Assembly: GCA_964551375.1 (NCBI GenBank)
Contig: CAZKBG010000001.1
Location: 490,833-554,832 of the forward strand
DNA: 64,000 nt
Reading direction: 5' to 3'
From: an uncultured archaeon
GTDB taxonomy: Archaea; Iainarchaeota; Iainarchaeia; Iainarchaeales; JAAZKV01
Part shown: one piece after another, positions 2,163 to 18,718 of the stretch
Position numbering within the stretch: position 1 is the first letter of the stretch
Layout: each line of letters opens with the position of its first letter
Made by a program: the position numbers and the translations under genes
Notes under the pieces: model-generated
The model's database searches: none
Told to the model about the DNA's origin: nothing
The model's input: only the letters and a program-made list of their open reading frames with translations

Positions 2163-2999
2163 ATGCTAACCGAAACACTCGCGCCAATATTTGGCAACAA
2201 CACAACAAAAGCGCTAATCATCCAAACACTAACCGAAAAACCCCTCACAATCAAAGAAATACACACAAGAATCCAAAAAACCACAAACAAAAACATAACC
2301 TACCAAGCAATGCACAAAGCAACAAAAGAAATGATAACAGACCAAATACTCGAAAAACACGGAAAACAAGTGAGGATAAATAAAGAGTGGGTTGAAAAGT
2401 TAGCAAAATTAACTGAACAATTACAAAATCAAAAAGATTACAAAACAGTAAGTTCAACCATACAAAAATTTGAATATAACACATTTTCAGAATTTGGAAA
2501 AGCGATTCTGCGTGAATGGATGAAGATTCAAAATCCAAATAACTTGACTAGTTTTTGCATTCTCAACCATGCTTGGCCATTAATGAGCATGGATAAAGAA
2601 GACTGGACATTATTTCAGAAGCTTTTTACAAATGAAAAATTTTACGGCATAATATCAAACAGCACCCAATTAGACATCGCTTTTGAGAAGCCATTTGAAA
2701 CATTTGGAAAACGAGTGATAGTTGATCCAACATTAAATTTAGAATATGACTTAATAATAATAGGCGACTCAATAACCCAAGTATATTTTGAAAAAAGCTT
2801 TAAACAAGAACATGATAAATTATTTAGAAAGTATAAAAAACTTGATGAAAAAGCTGTGCGTGCTTTAACTGAACATTTTTTAATCAATAAAACGCGAATA
2901 GTTGCCCTTTTGATAACTGACCCACAACTTGCTGAACTTAATAGAAGGAATGCACTGTCAATTGTTGAAAAGTCAATCAAAAAGCACAAAACAAAATAA
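2163..2999 (+). CDS. Hypothetical protein with N-terminal winged-helix-like region
   Basis: 278-aa ORF. N-terminus (TKALIIQTLTEKPLTIKEIHTRI) resembles a wHTH. The rest is not recognised. Confidence 0.4.
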   Translation: MLTETLAPIFGNNTTKALIIQTLTEKPLTIKEIHTRIQKTTNKNITYQAMHKATKEMITDQILEKHGKQVRINKEWVEKLAKLTEQLQNQKDYKTVSSTIQKFEYNTFSEFGKAILREWMKIQNPNNLTSFCILNHAWPLMSMDKEDWTLFQKLFTNEKFYGIISNSTQLDIAFEKPFETFGKRVIVDPTLNLEYDLIIIGDSITQVYFEKSFKQEHDKLFRKYKKLDEKAVRALTEHFLINKTRIVALLITDPQLAELNRRNALSIVEKSIKKHKTK

Positions 3000-3035: not shown

Positions 3036-4274
3036 GTGGTTTTTGACATAAGTATTGGAACAAGCCAAAACTGGGATGCCAAAACAGCAACTTTAGAGGC
3101 TCTAAAAACAGCATTAAAAGGAACTGATCCCCCAAAATTTGCCCTCGTTTTTGCAACAATTCATTACTTAAAAAATAAAGGCTTACAACAGATACTTGAT
3201 ACAGTATATCAAAATGTTCCAAAAAGCACGCCTTTAATTGGAGGGACAGTTGCTGGATTTATGAATAAATCTGGTGTATTTACAAGAGGATTAACTGTAT
3301 TATTTGCATATTCTGACGAGATAGATGTAAAAGCTAATATTGGCTATAACACAAAAAGATCCCCTACAATAGCTGCAAAAGATTGTTCAAAAGGATTATT
3401 ATCAACTACTGGTAAAAAAAATAATTTTATATTTCTAGTATCAAGTGCTGTTGTTCCAAATGTCCCAATATTTAATAAAAAGGTTGTACAGTTAAGCGCA
3501 ATATCCCCTTTTGTAAAAATATTTGATACATTTTCTTCGCTTTTACAAATTGGACCAAGCAGAGACGAAACTGTGTTTAATGAATTCTCAAACGAGATGA
3601 AAGATAGTGTTGGAATTGGCGGAGGCGTTTGTGATAATTTAGAATTATTTAATAATTATGTATTTTACAATAACAAAGTTATAACAAATAGTGTTGTAGC
3701 TCTTGCGATTAGCAGTAATACTCAATACACTGTTAGAACCAGTAGCCGATTATTCCCAACTCAAAAGAAGCTCAATATAAGCAAATTATCAAAAAGTAGA
3801 TATGTTATAGAAAAAATAAATGGCAACCCCCCTCTTGACGAATATCTAAAAATAATGGGTTGGCCAAAAGACTTTATTGATGAACGAATGTACCGAAAAA
3901 TATTTTATTACCCAATAATAAATGAAGCTAATAAAAATAAAGAATCTCGAATGTTTGGTTTGGTTTATGGAAATCAATTTATTTGCCCAATGAAAATTTA
4001 TCCTGGAGAAAGCCAATTATACACATCATCAGGAAAAGACTTAATAGATTCAATAACTGATGTTACTGGCGATGAGAAATCTAAATTTACATTCATTGTT
4101 TCATGCGGCACTAGACTTGAAACACTTGGACACAAAGCATACTTAATAAACCAAAAGATATTAGAAAAACACGACGGCAACTTCCTTGTAATATATACTG
4201 CAGGAGAATATTCGAAAGACACTACTAATATAAAAACAAATTATCAGACAGATAATTCATTGTCCTTTTACTAA
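3036..4274 (+). CDS. FIST-domain-like putative sensory protein
   Basis: 412 aa. The N-terminal pattern (PKFALVFATIHY...STPLIGGTVAGFMNKSGVF...GLTVLF) matches the FIST_N layout as I recall it. Confidence 0.45.
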   Translation: MVFDISIGTSQNWDAKTATLEALKTALKGTDPPKFALVFATIHYLKNKGLQQILDTVYQNVPKSTPLIGGTVAGFMNKSGVFTRGLTVLFAYSDEIDVKANIGYNTKRSPTIAAKDCSKGLLSTTGKKNNFIFLVSSAVVPNVPIFNKKVVQLSAISPFVKIFDTFSSLLQIGPSRDETVFNEFSNEMKDSVGIGGGVCDNLELFNNYVFYNNKVITNSVVALAISSNTQYTVRTSSRLFPTQKKLNISKLSKSRYVIEKINGNPPLDEYLKIMGWPKDFIDERMYRKIFYYPIINEANKNKESRMFGLVYGNQFICPMKIYPGESQLYTSSGKDLIDSITDVTGDEKSKFTFIVSCGTRLETLGHKAYLINQKILEKHDGNFLVIYTAGEYSKDTTNIKTNYQTDNSLSFY

Positions 4275-8563: not shown

Positions 8564-10879
8564 TCAAATAAAAGCAGAAACTGTTTTTGCGCCGAGATAC
8601 TTTTTGGCAAGATCGGTAAATTCAGCCACTGCGCCAGCCAAATCATCATCGCTTGTCATGCTTTCAATGTAAATAACAGCGTTTTTTGTCCCTTCAGTGA
8701 ATTTTGTTTTGTCAGATTCTCTCCAGTTCCATCTTCTGCATAAAACATCCTTATCATCGCGGTAAATTACTTCCCCTTTATTTGGATGCTCTTTCATTTT
8801 TCCGCCAATCATAAAGAAATTTTCAGAGCCATCAGCAATTGTGAGCCTTACTTTTCCCTCAACTTTATCCAAGTCATCTCCACCCACAGGAACAACATAT
8901 TTTATTGAAATTAAATTATACAAATCAACAAGCGAGTTTATGTTTGGAAGAGGATTGTTGTTCAAAACTCTCCTCACAAGCGCATCAACTGAAGGCTTGT
9001 TCTTTGCAGGATCGCCGTTGAACGAAGAATATGATGCTCTCCAAGCTTTAAGCTGAGGAATATCAAGAGGATTAAATCCGCCAAATCTTGCCCTAAGCGC
9101 TGATTCTTCAGCCCTCAATAAAGAAGTAATTTCCTTATTTTCCTTGGAATTTGTTATTCCTTCAAGAACTACCACGCCAGCTTTATACCCTGGAAACTTT
9201 TCAACAACAGAAGAACTTATTTCAAATTTCAATTTTCCCAAATCAACTTCTTTTGATTTATTCTCATAAGATTTCTTGGATAACGGCTTGTCAATCGACT
9301 CGAGAAGCGCTTTAACTTTATCAAGACCGATAACTATTATGAAGTTTGATAATTTTGGCCCGAAGTTTTTATTTATTATTATTTTATAAAACGCAGTGAA
9401 GAATTCTTTTTGTTCAATTCCAGATTCTTTGCACGCTTCCCCAAAAAGCTTAATCAATTCATCTTCGCTCTTGCCAAGCATCTGTTTTGCAACAAATCTA
9501 ATTGCCGCTTTCTGCTTGTCAGTCAATGCGAGCTTTGCGTCATCGCTTGCATCATTTTGCAAAACAAACTTGAAATTGTCTTCAGCATAATTGTCAATCC
9601 AAAACTTTACCCTATCAACCATTGAATTAACATACTTCATGTCAAAAGAGTTGAAATAGGAGGCAATTTTTTTCCTGTCAAACTGATACACCTGCGAAAC
9701 AGTCACAAGATGCCTAAAATCAATCTGTGAAGGAATTTCTTTTGGCAATGAAACGGAACTTAATTCATAAATTCGGTTGTTTAATTCAAGGTCCTCTTTT
9801 TCGCACGGCTCTTTTCCAAAATAAATTCTTTCAACTTTCTGAAACTCCGAGTAAAGCCTTATTACATCCATTCCCTCAAAGCTCACTTCAAAATATTTTT
9901 CAGGCCTTTTTGAAACAAAAATGTACCTAATAATTTCCGGAGTGTAAACGCCAAGCATTTCTTTTAAGTCAATAGTGTTTCCCTTAGAAGAAGACATTTT
10001 TCCTCCCTGCCCTTTGATTGAAATAAATTCATACATTATGTGTTCAGGCGGAATTCTTCCAAAAATATCTTTTACAATTACTTCAGCAGTTGTATTGCTC
10101 CCTCCCTCGCTTGAGTGCTCTTTTCCAGAAGGCTCAAAATCAACTTTCTCAAACTCCCATCTCATAGGCCAGTCAACACGCCACTGAAGCTTTGCTATTC
10201 CTTTTTTTCTAAAATCAAAAGTATTAGTAAACCCGCATTGGCACATATAACTTAATGAATAATCCCCGTCATAGCCGATGATTGTAGTATCATCCTTGTT
10301 GCATTTCTCGCAAAATACTCTAACAGGATTCCATTCGCCTTCCAAATCCTCAGCTCTCCACTTATCAAGAACCTCTTTAATAGCATCTTTATTCAAAAGA
10401 GCTTTTTTCATCCCTTCAGAATAAGTGCACGCGCGGTATTTTTTTGCCTGATTCAAAAACTCAGGAAAAACACCCATTTGCGGAAGATAACTCTCAACAG
10501 TTTTTTCATTGTGCTCAGCATAACTCGCATGGCATCCAAAAGGATCAGGCACATCAACTATCGGCTGTCTCAAATATTTCTCAAGCATTTCTTTATTTGG
10601 AAAATTAGCGGGAACTTTTCTAAAAACATCATAGTCATCCCAAGAATAAATAAATCTGACTTTCTTTCCCTGCCTTGCAATCGCTTTTGCGACTAAATCA
10701 ACAGTAATAATTTCCCTAAAATTTCCAATGTGAACAACGCCTGAAGGAGTAATGCCCGCAGCAACAGTGATTAAGTCCTGCCCTTTTCTTTTTTCAATGA
10801 CATCCTTTGCTACCGCATCAGCCCAATGCACTTTTGAATCTGATTCATGCATTTTTTCATTAACAGCCATTTTACCCAC
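8564..10879 (-). CDS. lysK: Class I lysyl-tRNA synthetase with a ~218-aa C-terminal B3/4-like extension
   Basis: Class I aaRS signature motifs are VVHIGNFRE (HIGH variant) and KMSSSKGN (KMSKS variant), the combination characteristic of class I LysRS. At 771 aa it is about 240 aa longer than typical LysRS-I. The tail (PSVDALVRRVLNNNPLPNINSLVDLYNLISIKYVVPVGGDDLD) matches my recollection of the B3/4 domain core. Confidence 0.9.
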   Translation of the reverse strand: MGKMAVNEKMHESDSKVHWADAVAKDVIEKRKGQDLITVAAGITPSGVVHIGNFREIITVDLVAKAIARQGKKVRFIYSWDDYDVFRKVPANFPNKEMLEKYLRQPIVDVPDPFGCHASYAEHNEKTVESYLPQMGVFPEFLNQAKKYRACTYSEGMKKALLNKDAIKEVLDKWRAEDLEGEWNPVRVFCEKCNKDDTTIIGYDGDYSLSYMCQCGFTNTFDFRKKGIAKLQWRVDWPMRWEFEKVDFEPSGKEHSSEGGSNTTAEVIVKDIFGRIPPEHIMYEFISIKGQGGKMSSSKGNTIDLKEMLGVYTPEIIRYIFVSKRPEKYFEVSFEGMDVIRLYSEFQKVERIYFGKEPCEKEDLELNNRIYELSSVSLPKEIPSQIDFRHLVTVSQVYQFDRKKIASYFNSFDMKYVNSMVDRVKFWIDNYAEDNFKFVLQNDASDDAKLALTDKQKAAIRFVAKQMLGKSEDELIKLFGEACKESGIEQKEFFTAFYKIIINKNFGPKLSNFIIVIGLDKVKALLESIDKPLSKKSYENKSKEVDLGKLKFEISSSVVEKFPGYKAGVVVLEGITNSKENKEITSLLRAEESALRARFGGFNPLDIPQLKAWRASYSSFNGDPAKNKPSVDALVRRVLNNNPLPNINSLVDLYNLISIKYVVPVGGDDLDKVEGKVRLTIADGSENFFMIGGKMKEHPNKGEVIYRDDKDVLCRRWNWRESDKTKFTEGTKNAVIYIESMTSDDDLAGAVAEFTDLAKKYLGAKTVSAFI

Positions 10880-11020
10880 TTATGTGTAAAGTAATACTTC
10901 GGGCGTTTAGTTAAAAAAGCTTGGCTTAAATTACGAAAAGAGCAGTTTAGGATTAGAGCCATTTTAAGCTCGGGCATTACTATAAAAACCCCCAAAGCAA
11001 GAAATATTTAACGTGATATA

Positions 11021-11884
11021 ATGGGAAGGGCAGAGCTTTATAGAAAAGGGGGACCAGCACAGAAAATGCAAGGCGCAAGAAAATTAAGAGCCACAGGCAA
11101 CCCGATTTTTCGCCCAGCAGTCGGAATTAACAATAAAACAATGCAAATGGTGCTGAAAAGATGGACTGAAAGAAAAAGAGCCGAAGTGGTAAAAACAAAA
11201 TTGCCCCAAAAATTAAAAGAAATTGCAGGACAAACTCCAAAACCAAGCAGGACCCAAATAAATCAAGCAGTTCAAGCATGGCTTAAGGGAGAAGAACACA
11301 GAGTGATGTCCTACTCGCACCCCATAAAAGGAGCAAATGCGACAGGAAGCGAAGTTGCGATGAGATTTGCAGGCAAAGGACTTACTGAAAAAGCAAGAAG
11401 ACTTGCGGGGCTAAATCCAGAAGCAGCGCAGACTTTTTCAAGATTATTTAGAACCACTACAATTAATGTGCCTGAAATTAAGCTATACGTCGGACTTCCA
11501 ACAGCAATAATTATGCTGAAATTAATAAATAAGGCAGGGTTTAGAAGAGCAAATGCCGCAGTCAAAGTTGTTTCAAGAGAATCAAGCAGAATCATGAATA
11601 AAAATAAGCATAACAAAAAACTATCCTCATACCACAGCGACGCTTTCAATAACATCAGCAGCATGTTTTCAATGGCGCACACACTAAGAGAGCTTATGCT
11701 GCTTGACAAAAGAAACGGACTTGAAGCAGCAATGGATACAATCCATGCAAGGGAAGAAGCTCTTGCAAAGCTAAAAGCGCACCCAGAAGTACAAAATTAC
11801 AATTCTATCGCAAAAAGACTGGCTTCTGAAATTGAAGAAGGAAAAAGAGAAGCTGAAATATTCAAACAACAGAATGGACTTTAA
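11021..11884 (+). CDS. Hypothetical basic protein, paralog family A member 1
   Basis: 287 aa, Lys/Arg-rich. Shares a region with the next ORF (SHPIKGANATGSEVAMRFAGKGLTEKARRLAGL vs SHDIAIIRGGSKVTGTELAVRLVSRELIQTARQIGI). No known domain recognised. Confidence 0.5.
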   Translation: MGRAELYRKGGPAQKMQGARKLRATGNPIFRPAVGINNKTMQMVLKRWTERKRAEVVKTKLPQKLKEIAGQTPKPSRTQINQAVQAWLKGEEHRVMSYSHPIKGANATGSEVAMRFAGKGLTEKARRLAGLNPEAAQTFSRLFRTTTINVPEIKLYVGLPTAIIMLKLINKAGFRRANAAVKVVSRESSRIMNKNKHNKKLSSYHSDAFNNISSMFSMAHTLRELMLLDKRNGLEAAMDTIHAREEALAKLKAHPEVQNYNSIAKRLASEIEEGKREAEIFKQQNGL

Positions 11885-11930
11885 TTTTTCATGAGTACAG
11901 TTATATAAACAACTGAGGCTGAAATTATTT

Positions 11931-12929
11931 ATGCCACAATTAAAACCAAGATTAACTCCATTGCAGGCGGAAAAACTGCGAAAAGCAAGGGAGCGAAAGG
12001 GAAAAGGATTGCCTTTTATTTACCCTATGCAGGGAATGACTAAAGAGGCGCAGCTGGCAGTGATTCAAAGAATAAAACAAGACAAAGAAAGATCTTTAAT
12101 AGAAAAAATGAAACAAAGAAAAGTTGCAAAAATACGGGGAAAAATTATCCGCGAAATTGAGCCTGCTTTTGAAAAAATGACCCACAACGAAAGAACTACA
12201 ATAAGACCGAGCATAATGCACACGCTTTCAAGCGAACTTTCAACAATACGTTTTCCTGAAACAAGAAAAGAAGCAGAGCAAGTGGAAAGAGTTCTAAGAA
12301 TGCACCGAAAAGGAAAAGGGAAAACAATAAACTCACATGATATTGCAATAATAAGAGGAGGATCAAAAGTAACTGGAACCGAACTTGCAGTAAGGCTAGT
12401 TTCGCGAGAACTTATTCAAACAGCAAGACAAATAGGAATTGCGCATGAAAGCGCGCTTGTTGTTGAAAGGTTACTGCATAATAGAAATCAAAAAATACAC
12501 GGCACAAATGTCACTACCTATCCTCCAAATAGCTTACTTTTTATTAAGCTGATAAATAGAGAAGGCGAACAAAAAGCGGTGCATGTAATTGATGAAGTTG
12601 AGAAGCGCGCAGTGGAAATACAAAAAGACGCAAATTCACTTGGAAAAGAAACAAACTACAGCGATGTATTTGTTAATGTAAGCCAAAAAGTTCAGCCCCT
12701 GCAAATGGGTTTAGAGATGAACCTAATGAATAAAGAAAAATTTGTCAAGCAAGCGTGGAATGACTTAATGACAAGAACCCAAGCAGTGGCTTCAGCAAAA
12801 AAAACACATGGAGCAGCACTAGGAAAAGTTCTTGACAAGATTTCAAGTGAAAATATGTCATTTATGGGAGAAATACAGGAATACATGAAACGAAATAATA
12901 TTGGCCCGCATGTACTATTCAGCAAATAA
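11931..12929 (+). CDS. Hypothetical basic protein, paralog family A member 2
   Basis: 332-aa tandem paralog of 11021..11884 (shared G-x-x-x-TG-x-E-x-A-x-R motif region). Basic N-terminus. Confidence 0.5.
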   Translation: MPQLKPRLTPLQAEKLRKARERKGKGLPFIYPMQGMTKEAQLAVIQRIKQDKERSLIEKMKQRKVAKIRGKIIREIEPAFEKMTHNERTTIRPSIMHTLSSELSTIRFPETRKEAEQVERVLRMHRKGKGKTINSHDIAIIRGGSKVTGTELAVRLVSRELIQTARQIGIAHESALVVERLLHNRNQKIHGTNVTTYPPNSLLFIKLINREGEQKAVHVIDEVEKRAVEIQKDANSLGKETNYSDVFVNVSQKVQPLQMGLEMNLMNKEKFVKQAWNDLMTRTQAVASAKKTHGAALGKVLDKISSENMSFMGEIQEYMKRNNIGPHVLFSK

Positions 12930-13221
12930 ATGCTAAAAATAACCCAAAATGCTACTTAAAGACATCAAAAATTACCAGAATGTAATAAAAGATACACTCA
13001 AGCCCCCGAAGTATTTAATAATCACCAGGAAGGGTAATTAATGATGGATGTTAACTTTGTCTGGAGCTTATGATTCTGATTGTAGGCTCACCTCATTATT
13101 AAAGCTCCAGGCAGTTCACCAGTTTAACATCCGCTCACCTAATAATCCCCCAAGCCGAGAGGCTCGACATTATTTGAAAATTTTGTGGCAACCATAAACC
13201 CATCAAACAAACTTTTAGAAA

Positions 13222-13292
13222 GGGGTTGTGGTATAACGGCATTACGCAAGGTTCCAGACTTTGTTATTTGGGTTCAACTCCCAATAACCCCA
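13222..13292 (+). tRNA. tRNA-Trp (anticodon CCA)
   Basis: Hand-folded cloverleaf. Acceptor GGGGTTG pairs with TAACCCC. D arm is GTA/TAC with a GG-containing loop. Anticodon stem CAAGG/CTTTG encloses loop TTCCAGA (U33, CCA, A37). T arm is TTGGG-TTCAACT-CCCAA. Discriminator is A. No CCA encoded. Confidence 0.8.
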
Positions 13293-13328
13293 TAATAACT
13301 TTAAAAACAAGAACGGAGTTGATTATTT

Positions 13329-14459
13329 GTGGAAGAAAGAAAGCGTGATGAGATGAATAAAGAAGAAACAGTGATTATTGACCCTTGGGGAAAAGAGCTT
13401 GTCCAGGACTACACACGTTTAATCAAAGAGTTCGGGATGGAAGCGTTTGACAATAATATTTTCCCAGAGCCAAGCTTGCAGATGCGAAGAGGAGTAAATT
13501 TTGGAATGCAGGACGGAGAACAGATTGCAAAAGCCATAAAAGAAAAAAAACCATTCTACTGCCTCACAGGAATCATGCCATCAAGCGAAAAAATACACTT
13601 AGGAACTGAAACTGTTGTACAAAATGTTAGATACTTTCAGGACCACGGCGCAAAAACTTATATTTTAATTGCGGATGTTGAATCACAAGCCACCCGCGGA
13701 GTATCACTTGAAGAAGGAAAAAGAAGAGCAATGGAATTTCACATACCAGCCTACGTGGCTCTTGGACTTGATATTACAAAAACAAATTTTTACCTTCAAA
13801 GTGAAAACAAAAAAGTTTCAAACCTTGCAGCAATATGCTCTCAAAAAATAACTGAAAATGAATTTAGAGCAATTTACGGAAGCGTTCACCCGTCAAAAGT
13901 AATGAGCGCTTTCACCCAAATGGGAGATATACTTTACCCGCAGCTTGAAGAAAGAATGCCAGGAGTAATTCCTGTCGGAATTGACCAAGCCCCCCACATT
14001 AGAATGGTGAGGGATATTTCAAGAAGATTAAAACAAGATTATGGATTCTTCCTTCCAAGCGCAGTATACAATAAATACACAAGCGCTCTTGACGGCTCGT
14101 TTAAAATGAGCAAAAGCTCGGGAGAATTCTCAAAATTTGATATTCCTGAAAAAGATATGAAAATGGTTGAGAAAAAAATACAAAAGGCGCTCACTGGCGG
14201 AAGGGCAACAAAAGAAGAACAGAGGGCAAAGGGCGGAGAAATAGATAAATGCGTTGTTTATGAATATTGCAAAAACCATTTCATAAAAGACGATAAAATT
14301 CTCTCGCAAATGTATGAAGAATGCGTGAGCGGCAAAAACCTTTGCGGAGAGTGCAAGGCAAAATTTGGAATACCGAATGCGGTAAAGTTTTACGAAGATT
14401 TTAATAAAAACTTTGAGAAAGCAAAAAAGTCAATAGGAAAAATAAAATTTGTGAACTGA
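13329..14459 (+). CDS. trpS: Tryptophanyl-tRNA synthetase (archaeal/eukaryotic type)
   Basis: HIGH-region CLTGIMPSSEKIHLGT and KMSKS motif. The C-terminal block (ALTGGRATKEEQRAKGGEIDKCVVYEYCKNHF ... CGECK) matches archaeal TrpRS, not TyrRS. Confidence 0.9.
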   Translation: MEERKRDEMNKEETVIIDPWGKELVQDYTRLIKEFGMEAFDNNIFPEPSLQMRRGVNFGMQDGEQIAKAIKEKKPFYCLTGIMPSSEKIHLGTETVVQNVRYFQDHGAKTYILIADVESQATRGVSLEEGKRRAMEFHIPAYVALGLDITKTNFYLQSENKKVSNLAAICSQKITENEFRAIYGSVHPSKVMSAFTQMGDILYPQLEERMPGVIPVGIDQAPHIRMVRDISRRLKQDYGFFLPSAVYNKYTSALDGSFKMSKSSGEFSKFDIPEKDMKMVEKKIQKALTGGRATKEEQRAKGGEIDKCVVYEYCKNHFIKDDKILSQMYEECVSGKNLCGECKAKFGIPNAVKFYEDFNKNFEKAKKSIGKIKFVN

Positions 14460-14462
14460 TAT

Positions 14463-15158
14463 ATGCCTAAATTACATTCAAACAGGGCAATGCAACAGGA
14501 AAGAATACGCGCAAGCCAGAAACAGCTTCAGCTTTTGAGAAGAAAAGAAAAAATAAAAGGCCCAAAGTTTGAGGCAAACGGAAAACATTTCCAGCAGCAA
14601 AACAGATTAAGAACGCTTCTTGAGAGAGTGCGCCCAAGAGCAATGAAGCCCCAGCAGGAATTTGGAACAGGAGTGGACTTTGTATTCGCTGGGAAAAAGA
14701 TTGATTTTAAGTTTGGATTTGGAACACTCGGACACAACACAATAAGCGTGAGAATGAACGGAAATGAACTCATAAACAAATCAGACTGGACAATGGTATG
14801 CAACGAACGCGGAGACATAATCATATTTGGGACAGACAGGATACGCGACTTTGTAAAAATGAACAGAAGCAAAATGAAGCAAAATATGTTTCTAAATAAA
14901 GGCACTTATACAATGCACAGAATCCCATTAAGCGAAATGCTTGGGGAAACAAGATACACTGGGAACATACGCTCGGGAAAAGGAATCCTTAAAGCATTAA
15001 AAAAAATGAACCGAATTGACAACCCGAATATGCCTGCCAAAAGCCCTTTTTTAGGACTAGGACAAAGCAAAGCTGAACGGATAAGGATTGCGCAATCTTT
15101 CACACGAATGGGCGCGCCGCCGCAAAGGCCGAGATTTGACCGCAGAATAGGCAGATGA
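14463..15158 (+). CDS. Hypothetical basic protein, paralog family B member 1
   Basis: 231 aa. The core (GVDFVFAGKKIDFKFGFGTLGHNTISVRMNGNELINKSDWTMV) is clearly homologous to the next ORF. Arg-rich C-terminus. Starts 4 nt after the trpS stop. Confidence 0.5.
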   Translation: MPKLHSNRAMQQERIRASQKQLQLLRRKEKIKGPKFEANGKHFQQQNRLRTLLERVRPRAMKPQQEFGTGVDFVFAGKKIDFKFGFGTLGHNTISVRMNGNELINKSDWTMVCNERGDIIIFGTDRIRDFVKMNRSKMKQNMFLNKGTYTMHRIPLSEMLGETRYTGNIRSGKGILKALKKMNRIDNPNMPAKSPFLGLGQSKAERIRIAQSFTRMGAPPQRPRFDRRIGR

Positions 15159-15196: not shown

Positions 15197-15841
15197 ATGT
15201 TTGATGCCCCAAACAATGCCTTACTGTTGGAACTTTTTTTAGAGCACACTCGCGCCAAAAATTGCAGGAAAATTTCTTTTAGAAAAAAAATCCAGCAGAA
15301 AATAAACCCAACCTGCATGGAGCAGAACAAAATGCGTTCAGTGCTTTTGGAAATGATTCCAAAAGAAATGGAAATAATAGAAGACGCGCATTTTGGAGTG
15401 GATTATTTATACCGCGGAATAAAAATTGACCAAAAGTTTTCATTCGGCGCGCTTGGAAAAAATACCATCAAAATCAGGGTAAAAAACAGAAGGCTTGTGA
15501 ATAACTCTGACTGGACAATGATAATAAACAAAAACTGGGAGCTTGAATTCTTTGAAACCGGAAAGCTTGAAGAATTTGTGCGAAAGAACTGGAGCACTGT
15601 TCAGAAAAGACTTGTTGAAAAGAAAAAATATTACGCAGAGTATTCAATAAAGCTTGATGAACTTTACCAGCTTGAAAAAATCGAGCCTCTGAAGGCAAAT
15701 CTTGAAAAAGAAATGCTGATTAACGGGCTTAGCCAAATTGAGTTTATTGAAAATGAAAAAGAGCTCCCCCAAACACAGCTCGTGTTTGATGACTCAATTC
15801 TAAAAAGAAGCGTTCTAACTCTCGCACACAAAAGCCCTTAA
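15197..15841 (+). CDS. Hypothetical protein, paralog family B member 2
   Basis: 214 aa. GVDYLYRGIKIDQKFSFGALGKNTIKIRVKNRRLVNNSDWTMI aligns with the previous ORF. Confidence 0.5.
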   Translation: MFDAPNNALLLELFLEHTRAKNCRKISFRKKIQQKINPTCMEQNKMRSVLLEMIPKEMEIIEDAHFGVDYLYRGIKIDQKFSFGALGKNTIKIRVKNRRLVNNSDWTMIINKNWELEFFETGKLEEFVRKNWSTVQKRLVEKKKYYAEYSIKLDELYQLEKIEPLKANLEKEMLINGLSQIEFIENEKELPQTQLVFDDSILKRSVLTLAHKSP

Positions 15842-17434: not shown

Positions 17435-18718
17435 TCAAGCCTTTGAAATCTTGATTTCAGTTTTTCCGCCCATGTACTGCTGAAGAGCTTTTGGAATTCT
17501 AATAGTGCCATCCTTAGTCTGATGATTTTCAATAATTGCCCTAAGCATCCTTGGAACAGCAACTTCAGTCGCGTTTAAAGTATGGACAAATTCTTTATCA
17601 TTACCTTTTCTAACCTTAATATTCAATCTTGTTGCCTGGTAAGAAGAGCAATTACTCAATGAATGTGTTTCAAAATATTTGCCCTCTCTTGGAGACCAGC
17701 ACTCAATATCATATTTTTTAGAAGCAACAGTCCCAATATCCCCAGTGCAAATCTTCACAACCCTATACGGCAGTTCCATTGCTTTTACAAATTCTTCAGC
17801 ATTTTTTACAAGAACCTCATGCCACTTCGCGCTGTCCTTTGAATCACAGAAAACAATCTGCTCTACCTTGTCAAACTGATGAAGCCTAAATAGCCCTCTT
17901 TCTTCAAGCCCATGCTTTCCGCCTTCCTTTCTAAAATTCATTGAATAGCCCGTGTAAAGCAAAGGCAGATCCTTTTCTTCAAAAGTTTCATCCATGTGCA
18001 TTGCAGTCAAAGGATGCTCGGCAGTCGCAATCAGGTAATGATCTTCGCCGTCAATTTTATACATCACACTTTCAAAATCAGCAAGGTCAGTCACACCCAT
18101 ATACGCTTTCTTTGTCATCATATAAGGAGGAATTACAAGCTTAAACCCCTGATTTGACAATGAATTTATGGCAAAATTAACTATTGCGATATTTAATAGA
18201 GCCAAATCGCCTTTTAACGCATAAAATCCTTCGCCAGCAATCTTAACCGCTCTGTCAAAATCAGCAACGCCAAGCTTAACTGCAAGCTGACCATGATGAA
18301 CCACAGCAAAATCTTTTTTCTTAACTTCACCAACGGTTCTTACTACAACATTTTCATCTCCGCTCTTTCCATAAGGCACGTCATCAAGAAGCATGTTTGG
18401 AATGCTCATTAAAAGAAGCTTATTCTCTTCCTCAAGCTGCTTAACTCTCTCTTCCTTTGATTTAATCTTGGCAGGAAGCAATTTTGCTTTTTCTAAAAGC
18501 TTTTTAGTATCAAGCCCTTTGCCCTTGGCAAGCTTAATTTCTTCAGTAACAGCGTTTCTTTTTGCCCTTAGTTCATCAACTTCGGCTTTAAGAGTGCGCC
18601 ACTCTTTATCCTGATTAACCCACGCGTCAAATGATGATAGGATTGCGTCATTATGTCTCTTTGACAAGTTTTCCCTAACTGCTTTAGGATTTTCTCTAAT
18701 AATTTTTGGGTCAATCAA
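17435..18718 (-). CDS. serS: Seryl-tRNA synthetase
   Basis: 427 aa. N-terminal coiled-coil tRNA-binding arm (MIDPKIIRENPKAVRENLSKR...) and class II catalytic core motifs (FRKEGGKHG...RLHQFDKVEQ; TGDIGTVASKKYDIECW). Confidence 0.9.
   Translation of the reverse strand: MIDPKIIRENPKAVRENLSKRHNDAILSSFDAWVNQDKEWRTLKAEVDELRAKRNAVTEEIKLAKGKGLDTKKLLEKAKLLPAKIKSKEERVKQLEEENKLLLMSIPNMLLDDVPYGKSGDENVVVRTVGEVKKKDFAVVHHGQLAVKLGVADFDRAVKIAGEGFYALKGDLALLNIAIVNFAINSLSNQGFKLVIPPYMMTKKAYMGVTDLADFESVMYKIDGEDHYLIATAEHPLTAMHMDETFEEKDLPLLYTGYSMNFRKEGGKHGLEERGLFRLHQFDKVEQIVFCDSKDSAKWHEVLVKNAEEFVKAMELPYRVVKICTGDIGTVASKKYDIECWSPREGKYFETHSLSNCSSYQATRLNIKVRKGNDKEFVHTLNATEVAVPRMLRAIIENHQTKDGTIRIPKALQQYMGGKTEIKISKA

Follow-up and report, generated by a model that had tools for sequence, protein, structure and literature searches.

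A lineage-restricted pair of basic paralogs and a putative tryptophan leader peptide between lysS and trpS of an uncultured archaeon

Ribosome-mediated amino-acid sensing is considered typical of Bacteria, and we know of no demonstration of ribosome-mediated attenuation in Archaea. Attenuators of the E. coli trpL type and the leaderless cysteine upstream-ORF attenuators of mycobacteria rely on a short open reading frame (ORF) that contains a codon for the amino acid under regulation. Small basic nucleic-acid-binding proteins, whether ribosomal-protein-like or nucleoid-associated, combine an extreme positive charge with a basic disordered N-terminal tail, are cytoplasmic and have no cofactor or cysteine motifs. 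Here we analyze a locus with likenesses to both. It lies in a 64,000-nucleotide (nt) stretch of contig CAZKBG010000001.1 from an uncultured archaeon of the Iainarchaeota, referred to below as the window, and comprises two adjacent plus-strand genes for very basic proteins, A1 and A2 (family A), followed by an element that looks like a tryptophan (Trp) leader and by the genes for tRNA-Trp and tryptophanyl-tRNA synthetase (TrpRS, trpS).

Family A is small and is confined to a single lineage of uncultured archaea with small genomes. Because it falls outside every library searched, it is unclassifiable as a family and as a fold and is not a variant of something known. It resembles the small basic proteins in its charge, its basic tail, its predicted cytoplasmic location and its lack of cofactor or cysteine motifs; it differs from them in having no sequence or fold similarity, in being larger (225–340 aa) and in being fast-evolving and dispensable. 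The putative leader element (13014–13221), like the bacterial attenuators, consists of a short ORF with the codon of the regulated amino acid, placed in a hairpin arm and lying here upstream of trp, trpS and tRNA-Trp genes. With the mycobacterial elements, the closest published case (bioRxiv 10.1101/834739), it shares a leaderless mRNA, and in several loci a hairpin and T-run follow downstream. A full-text literature search for archaeal leader-peptide attenuators returned bacterial cases only. The element differs from known attenuators in its archaeal host, in a single Trp codon instead of tandem codons, in repeated CUCACC boxes complementary to a downstream GGUGGC box and in folds that showed no clear terminator/antiterminator switch.

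A tandem pair within a small archaeal family

A1 (11021..11884, plus strand, 287 aa, isoelectric point (pI) 10.6, net charge +29) is the short form of the family and A2 (11931..12929, plus strand, 332 aa, pI 10.2, net charge +25) the long form; the initial annotation of this stretch had given their coordinates, strand and lengths exactly. It had also proposed that the two are homologous, quoting one internal block (A1 98–131, A2 135–171). BLASTP aligned them over ~280 residues (55.1 bits, E = 3e-13, 22% identity, 42% positives), so the homology reaches beyond that block and is near full-length, and by this alignment A1 and A2 are true paralogs. The Arg/Lys-rich N-termini that it described were likewise found, with a net charge of +6 to +7 in the first 30 residues of each protein. 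No third copy was found when the family profile was run against all six-frame ORFs of the window.

The core shared with distant members, as delimited by their profile match and by conserved columns, spans approximately residues 76–287 of A1 (11246..11881, plus strand) and 114–323 of A2 (12270..12899, plus strand). It contains S97, R115, N170, G173, D207, N211 and R244 in A1 and S135, R155, N209, G212, D245, N249 and R282 in A2, where the Asp is invariant (codons at 11639–11641 and 12663–12665). Relative to A1, A2 has an additional helical insert of ~45 residues (about residues 50–113).

Both genes are constrained. The closest relative of the window, locus L001 of the metagenome-assembled genome (MAG) GCA_964544205, encodes a KaiC that is 96% identical to that of the window and carries an A1 ortholog (P0004, 75% aa identity) at the same position; A2 has the orthologs P0002 (47%), P0005 (47%) and P0006 (38%). 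The ratio of nonsynonymous to synonymous substitution rates (dN/dS) against the orthologous pair in this MAG was 0.16 for A1 (75% aa identity) and 0.29 for A2 (47%), which indicates coding sequences under purifying selection. In the same comparison the flanking genes KaiC, p213, AF0774 and GGR1 gave 0.02–0.06, so family A evolves 3–10 times faster than its neighbors. A T5 run (11885–11889) directly follows the A1 stop codon, and a TATA-like box, TTATATAAA (11901..11909, plus strand), has its center 26 nt 5′ of the A2 ATG. Since this is the usual archaeal spacing (~26 nt), the box is a putative promoter and implies that A2 would be transcribed on its own, into an mRNA with practically no leader.

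Among 5.8 billion proteins, a word-indexed search returned, beyond the queries themselves, one ortholog each for A1 and A2. When a four-sequence profile was run exhaustively with HMMER against 1.84 billion cluster representatives, it recovered 37 proteins at E ≤ 1e-3, most of them ~250 aa long and covering profile positions ~115–323. All contexts that we recovered were archaeal metagenome contigs or MAGs. The trpS genes on contigs with family A were always 72–88% identical to that of the window; family A itself is ~20% identical between genomes whose TrpRS are 72–81% identical. The lineage-specific expansion considered in the initial annotation is thus borne out by the small, archaeal-only set of matches, and the tandem pair is a local expansion. 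Two copies occur only in the window, in L001 and probably on the P0005 contig. A rough neighbor-joining tree and a common N-terminal helical extension group A1 with the A2-type clade, consistent with a duplication within that clade followed by rapid divergence.

The 38-sequence alignment has a mean column identity of 22%, and member length ranges from about 225 to 340 aa. Its recognizable motifs are a basic N-terminal R.K.KKD.PI, then RW.KRKG..V.S.D, A..A.RF..K.L, IPGTNI..RP...L.LKL.N..GE.K and SDAF.N, which holds the invariant Asp, and a C-terminal F...N.L. All 38 members have a pI of 9.9–10.9 and a net charge of +16 to +36, with 0–2 cysteines each. Because the proteome of the window is basic in general, with many enzymes at pI 9–10, this charge is weak evidence of function, suggestive and not decisive. 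No membrane segment or signal-peptide core was found in any of the 38 members (highest 19-residue hydropathy 1.32), and the proteins are accordingly predicted to be cytoplasmic. A secreted or host-directed effector of an episymbiotic archaeon, an idea raised in the initial annotation, would suit a lineage-specific, fast-evolving and duplicated family in a genome that looks small (946-kb contig). Against it stand N-termini that are strongly basic and hydrophilic with no hydrophobic h-region, the missing membrane segments and a neighborhood that encodes no secretion functions; the idea found no support, and we regard it as extremely improbable.

The slot between lysS and the Trp unit varies among relatives

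As no stretch of family A is conserved enough to serve as an anchor, we collected contexts by exact-sequence look-ups of distant members and by a metagenome scan anchored on TrpRS, which together gave ~30 loci of the same lineage (TrpRS 69–88% identical to that of the window). They share one gene order: KaiC, lysS on the minus strand, a slot, the Trp leader, optionally tRNA-Trp and Trp biosynthesis genes, trpS, one or two family B genes and GNAT, and further on a winged helix-turn-helix gene, a V4R gene and the gene for SerRS. The slot is the sole variable position of this otherwise syntenic block. In the window its left edge is the divergent intergenic region between lysS (minus) and A1 (plus) at 10880..11020, an arrangement that recurs in relatives, and its right edge is the spacer from the A2 stop codon to the TATA box of the leader (12930..13013).

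The contents of the slot are mutually exclusive: family A in 13 distinct places, an unrelated family C in seven and nothing in two (L015 and L016, with a gap of 360–420 nt). Besides the loci with two copies, intact single copies of A occupy the slot in L005, L006, L008, L009, L013, L014, L026 and L027, and broken copies do so in L031 (in-frame TAA, 3131–3133) and L037 (frameshift in an A8 run, about 1510–1520). These broken copies may be pseudogenes or sequencing errors, and the frameshift in L037 may be an assembly error. The divergent lysS(−)/A(+) arrangement is found in L001, L005, L008, L009, L013, L014, L026 and L027. Family C proteins are basic (~200–220 aa, pI 9.8–10.3), are encoded on the minus strand, co-directional with lysS, and carry the motifs KDW.HPKVR and YY..NA.DAF.HI. 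A [SR]DAF motif is common to families A and C, which have no detectable kinship (hhalign probability 2%). In the individual loci, family C genes lie at 2888–3520 in L020, 578–1276 in L022, 1–591 in L029, 1482–2150 in L030, 4075–4794 in L033, 5988–6632 in L038 and 962–1630 in L047.

Because family A is absent, broken or replaced in the slot of sister genomes, it appears from these comparisons to be dispensable. The initial annotation had taken the position of the genes among aminoacyl-tRNA synthetase genes as a hint of a nucleic-acid- or tRNA-associated function, and had proposed to compare the neighbors of copies elsewhere. Of the 12 distinct family A places with any flank recovered, 10 adjoin lysS and/or the Trp leader or trpS. 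Unrelated contexts were seen for P0018, which lies in L049 between thioredoxin-like and NUDIX genes, and for P0035 on L012. Since the whole block is syntenic among close relatives, the adjacency says little about function: it is inherited and not selected for the family A gene. A link to aminoacyl-tRNA synthetases or tRNA is unsupported because the slot is variable, members occur in unrelated contexts and the leader is present with or without family A. In this lineage, proximity to such genes should not be taken as function.

The gene on the left of the slot is itself exchanged. Its product in the window is a class I LysRS of 771 aa with a B3_4 domain fused to the C-terminus (8564..10879, minus strand). 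The class I (archaeal) enzyme is also present in L015, L016 and L037, and a bacterial-type class II lysS stands in the same place between KaiC and the slot in L001 and most other loci (for example 7482–8954 in L001 and 3220–4692 in L009; the L013 enzyme has a DUF2000 extension). Judged from these sequences, lysS is exchanged in place between the unrelated LysRS classes I and II. The swap in close relatives points to recombination at the slot junction and marks the slot as a recombination hotspot, whose recombination reaches even the essential lysS.

Families A and C could be cargo of a variable hotspot, that is, conflict-related genes (anti-virus, toxin-like or selfish) turned over by recombination between lysS and the Trp unit. 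The mutually exclusive slot contents, the opposite orientations of A and C, the fast evolution with two broken copies, the lysS swap at the junction and the tRNA gene next door all favor this explanation. It sits poorly with the absence of PADLOC or PHROG matches, of relatives in viral contigs or in phage and plasmid records, of an integrase or flanking direct repeats and of a partner gene as in a toxin–antitoxin pair, and with dN/dS values well below 1. We consider it possible, though unlikely.

Between KaiC and lysS, related loci carry differing numbers of tandem copies of another lineage-specific family, which we call p278 (window 2163–2999; no Pfam match, pI 9.5, dN/dS 0.22). The family is found in L005, L013, L038 (three tandem copies), L008, L014, L016, L027 and L033. 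This variation indicates that the area from KaiC through lysS to the slot accumulates fast-evolving orphan genes.

Predicted fold and possible functions of family A

An AlphaFold2 model of A1 (m3a34b7b728e2, built on the 38-sequence alignment) reached a mean predicted local distance difference test (pLDDT) score of 88.3 and a predicted template modeling score of 0.79. It shows about 11 helices and one small two-strand β-hairpin at the IPGTNI..RP motif, and it places SDAFxN in a loop between helices. The model of A2, from four sequences, is weaker (pLDDT 72), all-α and in agreement with that of A1. The N-terminal 30–35 residues have low pLDDT in both (47–59 and 53–80), and the remainder is confidently helical. 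The predicted architecture is thus a Lys/Arg-rich low-confidence tail followed by a compact all-α domain with a β-hairpin. Foldseek searches with the models against 350,542 PDB chains gave best E values of 0.9 (A1) and 0.28 (A2), mostly to designed helical repeats, and against the BFVD viral structures 0.23. Among PDB sequences, the sole match to the family profiles was a designed repeat protein, aligned over 25 residues of low-complexity-like character. The predicted fold is therefore without a match among the solved or viral structures searched.

The initial annotation could name no domain, and we found none for A1 or A2 above threshold in Pfam, NCBIfam or PHROGs. Nothing recurrent appeared when A1, A2, the two family B proteins and all 38 family A members were compared with Pfam, NCBIfam, PHROGs and PADLOC. 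One member, P0005, matched KH_2 (PF07650) at residues 214–254 (24.2 bits, cutoff 22, E = 2.9e-5), and the local helix-strand-strand-helix-helix order around IPGTNI..RP..L.LKL.N..GE.K resembles the α-β-β-α-α order of a type II KH domain. We judged this match spurious: the 37 other members showed no KH match even at E ≤ 1, the matched Gly of VIGKRT, to be compared with the conserved GxxG loop between two helices of KH domains, is unconserved in the alignment and lies mid-helix in the AlphaFold2 model, hhalign against E. coli S3 gave a probability of 0.2% and Foldseek returned no KH structure.

Several other identities were tried and rejected. A helix-hairpin-helix (HhH) or HhH-GPD glycosylase, an EndoIII-like fold whose catalytic Asp lies about 20 residues past the hairpin, was suggested by L.LKL.N.LGEKKT..IL ... 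SDAF but had no Pfam match in the 38 members at E ≤ 1, scored a probability of 0.2% against E. coli Nth in hhalign and was not among the Foldseek PDB matches. A tyrosine recombinase or integrase, defined by the catalytic set R..HxxR..Y and by att repeats and suggested by the adjacent tRNA and the basic helical protein, was dismissed for the lack of conserved His or Tyr columns, of Pfam or PHROG matches and of flanking direct repeats at the locus. Known anti-phage defense was rejected when PADLOC-DB gave no match at E ≤ 1 for A1, A2, two distant members and family C, and no viral or plasmid relatives of family A were found in PHROGs, in IMG/VR scans or by tblastn against phages and plasmids. 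The tRNA-binding cofactors of aminoacyl-tRNA synthetases (Arc1p, Trbp111, EMAPII) need an OB-fold β-barrel, whereas the model is all-α with a two-strand hairpin, and no matching Pfam domains were found either. Comparisons of family A with family B (probability 0.1%), p278 and family C by hhalign all stayed within 0.1–2%.

Five polar positions (R155, N209, D245, N249 and R282 in A2 numbering) are nearly invariant, being conserved in 82–100% of members despite the low mean identity. They could form the active site of an enzyme with a new all-α fold, and the position of SDAFxN in a loop between helices agrees with this. An enzyme would, however, be unusual in having so high a net charge and so rapid an evolution; no enzyme family or fold was matched, and the gene is dispensable in sister genomes. 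We therefore hold an enzymatic role to be very unlikely.

The reading that we tentatively favor, while granting it clearly less than even chances, is that family A is a non-enzymatic accessory protein that binds nucleic acid and has no specificity for the Trp unit. The basic tail and a basic helical surface would bind RNA or DNA electrostatically, and the protein would serve as an accessory factor of the architectural or chaperone type; the diverged A1 and A2 (23% identity) may form a hetero-pair through their long C-terminal helices. Its proximity to lysS, tRNA-Trp and trpS would be inherited synteny with no tRNA-specific role, and regulation of the Trp unit would fall to another element acting in cis, namely the leader peptide with its hairpin at 13014–13221. 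In favor of this reading are the paralogy and purifying selection of the pair, the charge kept in all 38 members despite sequence divergence, the low-confidence tail ahead of a confidently helical domain, the lack of a match to any enzyme family, defense system, phage family or solved structure, the variability of the slot, the members outside it and the leader that is present without family A. Four points weigh against this reading. No nucleic-acid-binding domain was detected in the family apart from the lone KH_2 match in P0005, and the charge means little in a proteome that is basic overall. The near-invariant polar residues resemble a ligand or active site as much as a binding surface, and in 10 of the 12 places family A still borders at least one of lysS, the Trp leader and trpS, so that a functional link is conceivable.

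Orphan families of this kind are common in uncultured archaea, and family A alone is one more in archaeal 'dark matter', although its predicted structure could represent a new nucleic-acid-binding architecture. The Trp leader and the exchange of lysS class weigh more than family A itself.

A putative Trp leader upstream of tRNA-Trp and trpS

The spacer of 292 nt between A2 and tRNA-Trp holds the leader element. A TATA box, TTTAATAAT (13014–13022), is followed 21 nt later by a leaderless mini-ORF, ATGGATGTTAACTTTGTCTGGAGCTTATGA (13044–13073), which would encode MDVNFVWSL* with a single UGG at 13062–13064. This codon lies in the 5′ arm of a hairpin, P1 (arms at about 13058–13070 and 13101–13113), whose 3′ arm contains GCUCCAGGCA (13104–13113). 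An outer stem (13046–13055 with 13122–13132) pairs the start-codon region. CUCACC-type boxes occupy the apical loop (13087–13092) and two positions 3′ of the hairpin (13115–13120 and 13134–13139), and further downstream lie a small GNRA hairpin (13153–13164) followed by T-runs, and a box, GUGGCAACCAUAAACCC (13185–13201), 20 nt before tRNA-Trp. The 97-nt leader element folds at −33.8 kcal/mol (z = −5.1).

A covariance model of the leader found one plus-strand copy per locus in 23 loci, the window copy scoring 83.8 bits. The copy is always upstream of tRNA-Trp, trpBA(CF)(EGD) or trpS. Each mini-ORF has 7–15 codons with exactly one Trp, then Ser, and a stop 1–4 codons later; the relatives would encode MDIKSVWSPFI, MDIEFAWSR, MNFDVWSL, MKEVWSQ, MERLVWSQ, MKFNNFVWSQLL, MKSSLFVWSPRY and MKVNLVEEIVWSPFI. 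The distance from ATG to UGG is 12, 15, 18, 21 or 30 nt, always with the Trp codon in frame, and the TATA box lies ~20–26 nt upstream of the mini-ORF across loci. The P1 hairpin enclosing the UGG had 91.6% of cells paired, compared with 25–51% in slid controls, and showed three compensatory pairs, for example between the third position of the Ser codon (AGC/AGU) and its partner G/A. The feature by which leader-peptide attenuators are recognized, a short ORF enriched in the codon of the regulated amino acid and lying upstream of the regulated genes, is present here in the sequence anatomy, and the element looks like a leaderless Trp-codon leader-peptide attenuator in an archaeon. Should its function match this anatomy, the element would be an instance of Archaea sensing an amino acid through the ribosome.

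How the leader would be read out is less clear-cut. A hairpin with a T-run follows it in L005, L006, L013, L038 and L047, and in L009 and L014 a CUCACC box pairs with a downstream GGUGGC box in constrained or free folds. When folding was constrained to imitate a ribosome occupying the UGG or the stop codon, no uniform terminator/antiterminator switch emerged across loci. Possible read-outs are termination, termination by a factor acting on untranslated RNA, and occlusion of a tRNA promoter. Rfam, including the T-box riboswitch, gave only two tRNAs at gathering score in the window and nothing in six related loci.

The leader is found whether the slot carries A, C or nothing; it is present without family A in L015, L016, L020, L022, L029, L030, L033, L038 and L047. 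We conclude that the element tied to tRNA-Trp and trpS is a cis-acting leader independent of family A. How many CUCACC boxes a locus carries bears no relation to whether family A is there. These observations bear on the proposal that family A is a factor linked to lysS or to the Trp unit, either a DNA-binding regulator of the divergent lysS or a cofactor of tRNA or leader RNA that reads the CUCACC boxes. Its merits are the 10 of 12 places between or beside lysS and the leader, the consistently divergent orientation of A with an 80–140-nt spacer wherever lysS is on the contig, the very basic charge, the family C genes that also abut the 5′ side of lysS when present, and a 16-nt inverted repeat, CCCGAAGTATT (88% complementary; window 10893–10908 and 13000–13015), which directly precedes both lysS, read on the lysS strand, and the TATA box of the leader. 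This repeat could be chance, or a promoter or operator element common to both. On the other side, adjacency is little informative where close relatives are syntenic over the whole block, the leader, tRNA-Trp and trpS are unchanged where A is absent, A is kept with either lysS class, box number is unrelated to A, members occur in unrelated contexts and no helix-turn-helix or RNA-binding domain was detected. On balance, a linked role of this kind is decidedly unlikely.

A bolder variant makes family A, and perhaps also family C, a trans-acting RNA-binding protein of unseen fold that works with the Trp leader, for instance by recognizing the CUCACC boxes or tRNA-Trp, and so controls how strongly tRNA-Trp, the trp genes and trpS are expressed. 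We give it a very slight chance. If true, the locus would be a complete archaeal amino-acid-sensing module of leader peptide and protein factor, a functional counterpart of TRAP/anti-TRAP or T-box systems.

The box just before tRNA-Trp in the window (13185–13201) is conserved as (GU)CUGGUGGCA(A/G)CCAUAA(A)CCC in L014, L015, L016, L022, L029 and L030, and wherever a tRNA-Trp gene occurs the box ends 16–23 nt short of the mature 5′ end of the tRNA. It could be the TFB recognition element and TATA box of a separate tRNA-Trp promoter, or it could pair, as RNA, with the CUCACC boxes. There is complementarity, too, between UGGUGG and the 3′ end of tRNA-Trp, CCACCA. Two contigs, L002 (Logan SRR12133403_8193) and L001 (contig 17 of its MAG), end inside the leader hairpin, at positions equivalent to about 13073 and 13098 of the window; that two independent assemblies stop here suggests an assembly problem or strain heterogeneity.

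Downstream of the leader the gene content varies. In the window only tRNA-Trp (13222..13292) and trpS (13329..14459) follow, with no Trp biosynthesis genes in the gap between these two (13293–13328). Elsewhere trpBA, trpCF and/or trpEGD lie between leader and trpS (L008, L009, L013, L020, L030, L031), or a TrpB2-like gene does (L014, L015, L016, L026 and others). The content of Trp biosynthesis genes behind the same leader is thus variable. The tRNA-Trp gene is present in some related loci and absent in others; in the gaps of those without it, ARAGORN found no tRNA-Trp with an intron and no other tRNA, with and without intron mode.

The pair sits among aminoacyl-tRNA synthetase genes, as the initial annotation described: LysRS, tRNA-Trp, TrpRS and, at 17435..18718 on the minus strand, SerRS are all present. 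Its picture of four basic proteins surrounding the Trp unit holds for the strongly basic A1 and A2; the second family B copy is only mildly basic (pI 9.1, net charge +6). The window also holds GNAT, a V4R protein, geranylgeranyl reductases and ribosomal protein L15e; the reductases, L15e and the archaeal-type LysRS mark its source as an archaeon. The family B genes, B1 (14463–15158) and B2 (15197–15841), are true paralogs of each other (E = 8e-28) without detectable kinship to family A. Nearly all related loci have a family B gene behind trpS (27–61% identity), a tighter association with trpS than that of family A, and in the window B1 starts 4 nt past the trpS stop codon.

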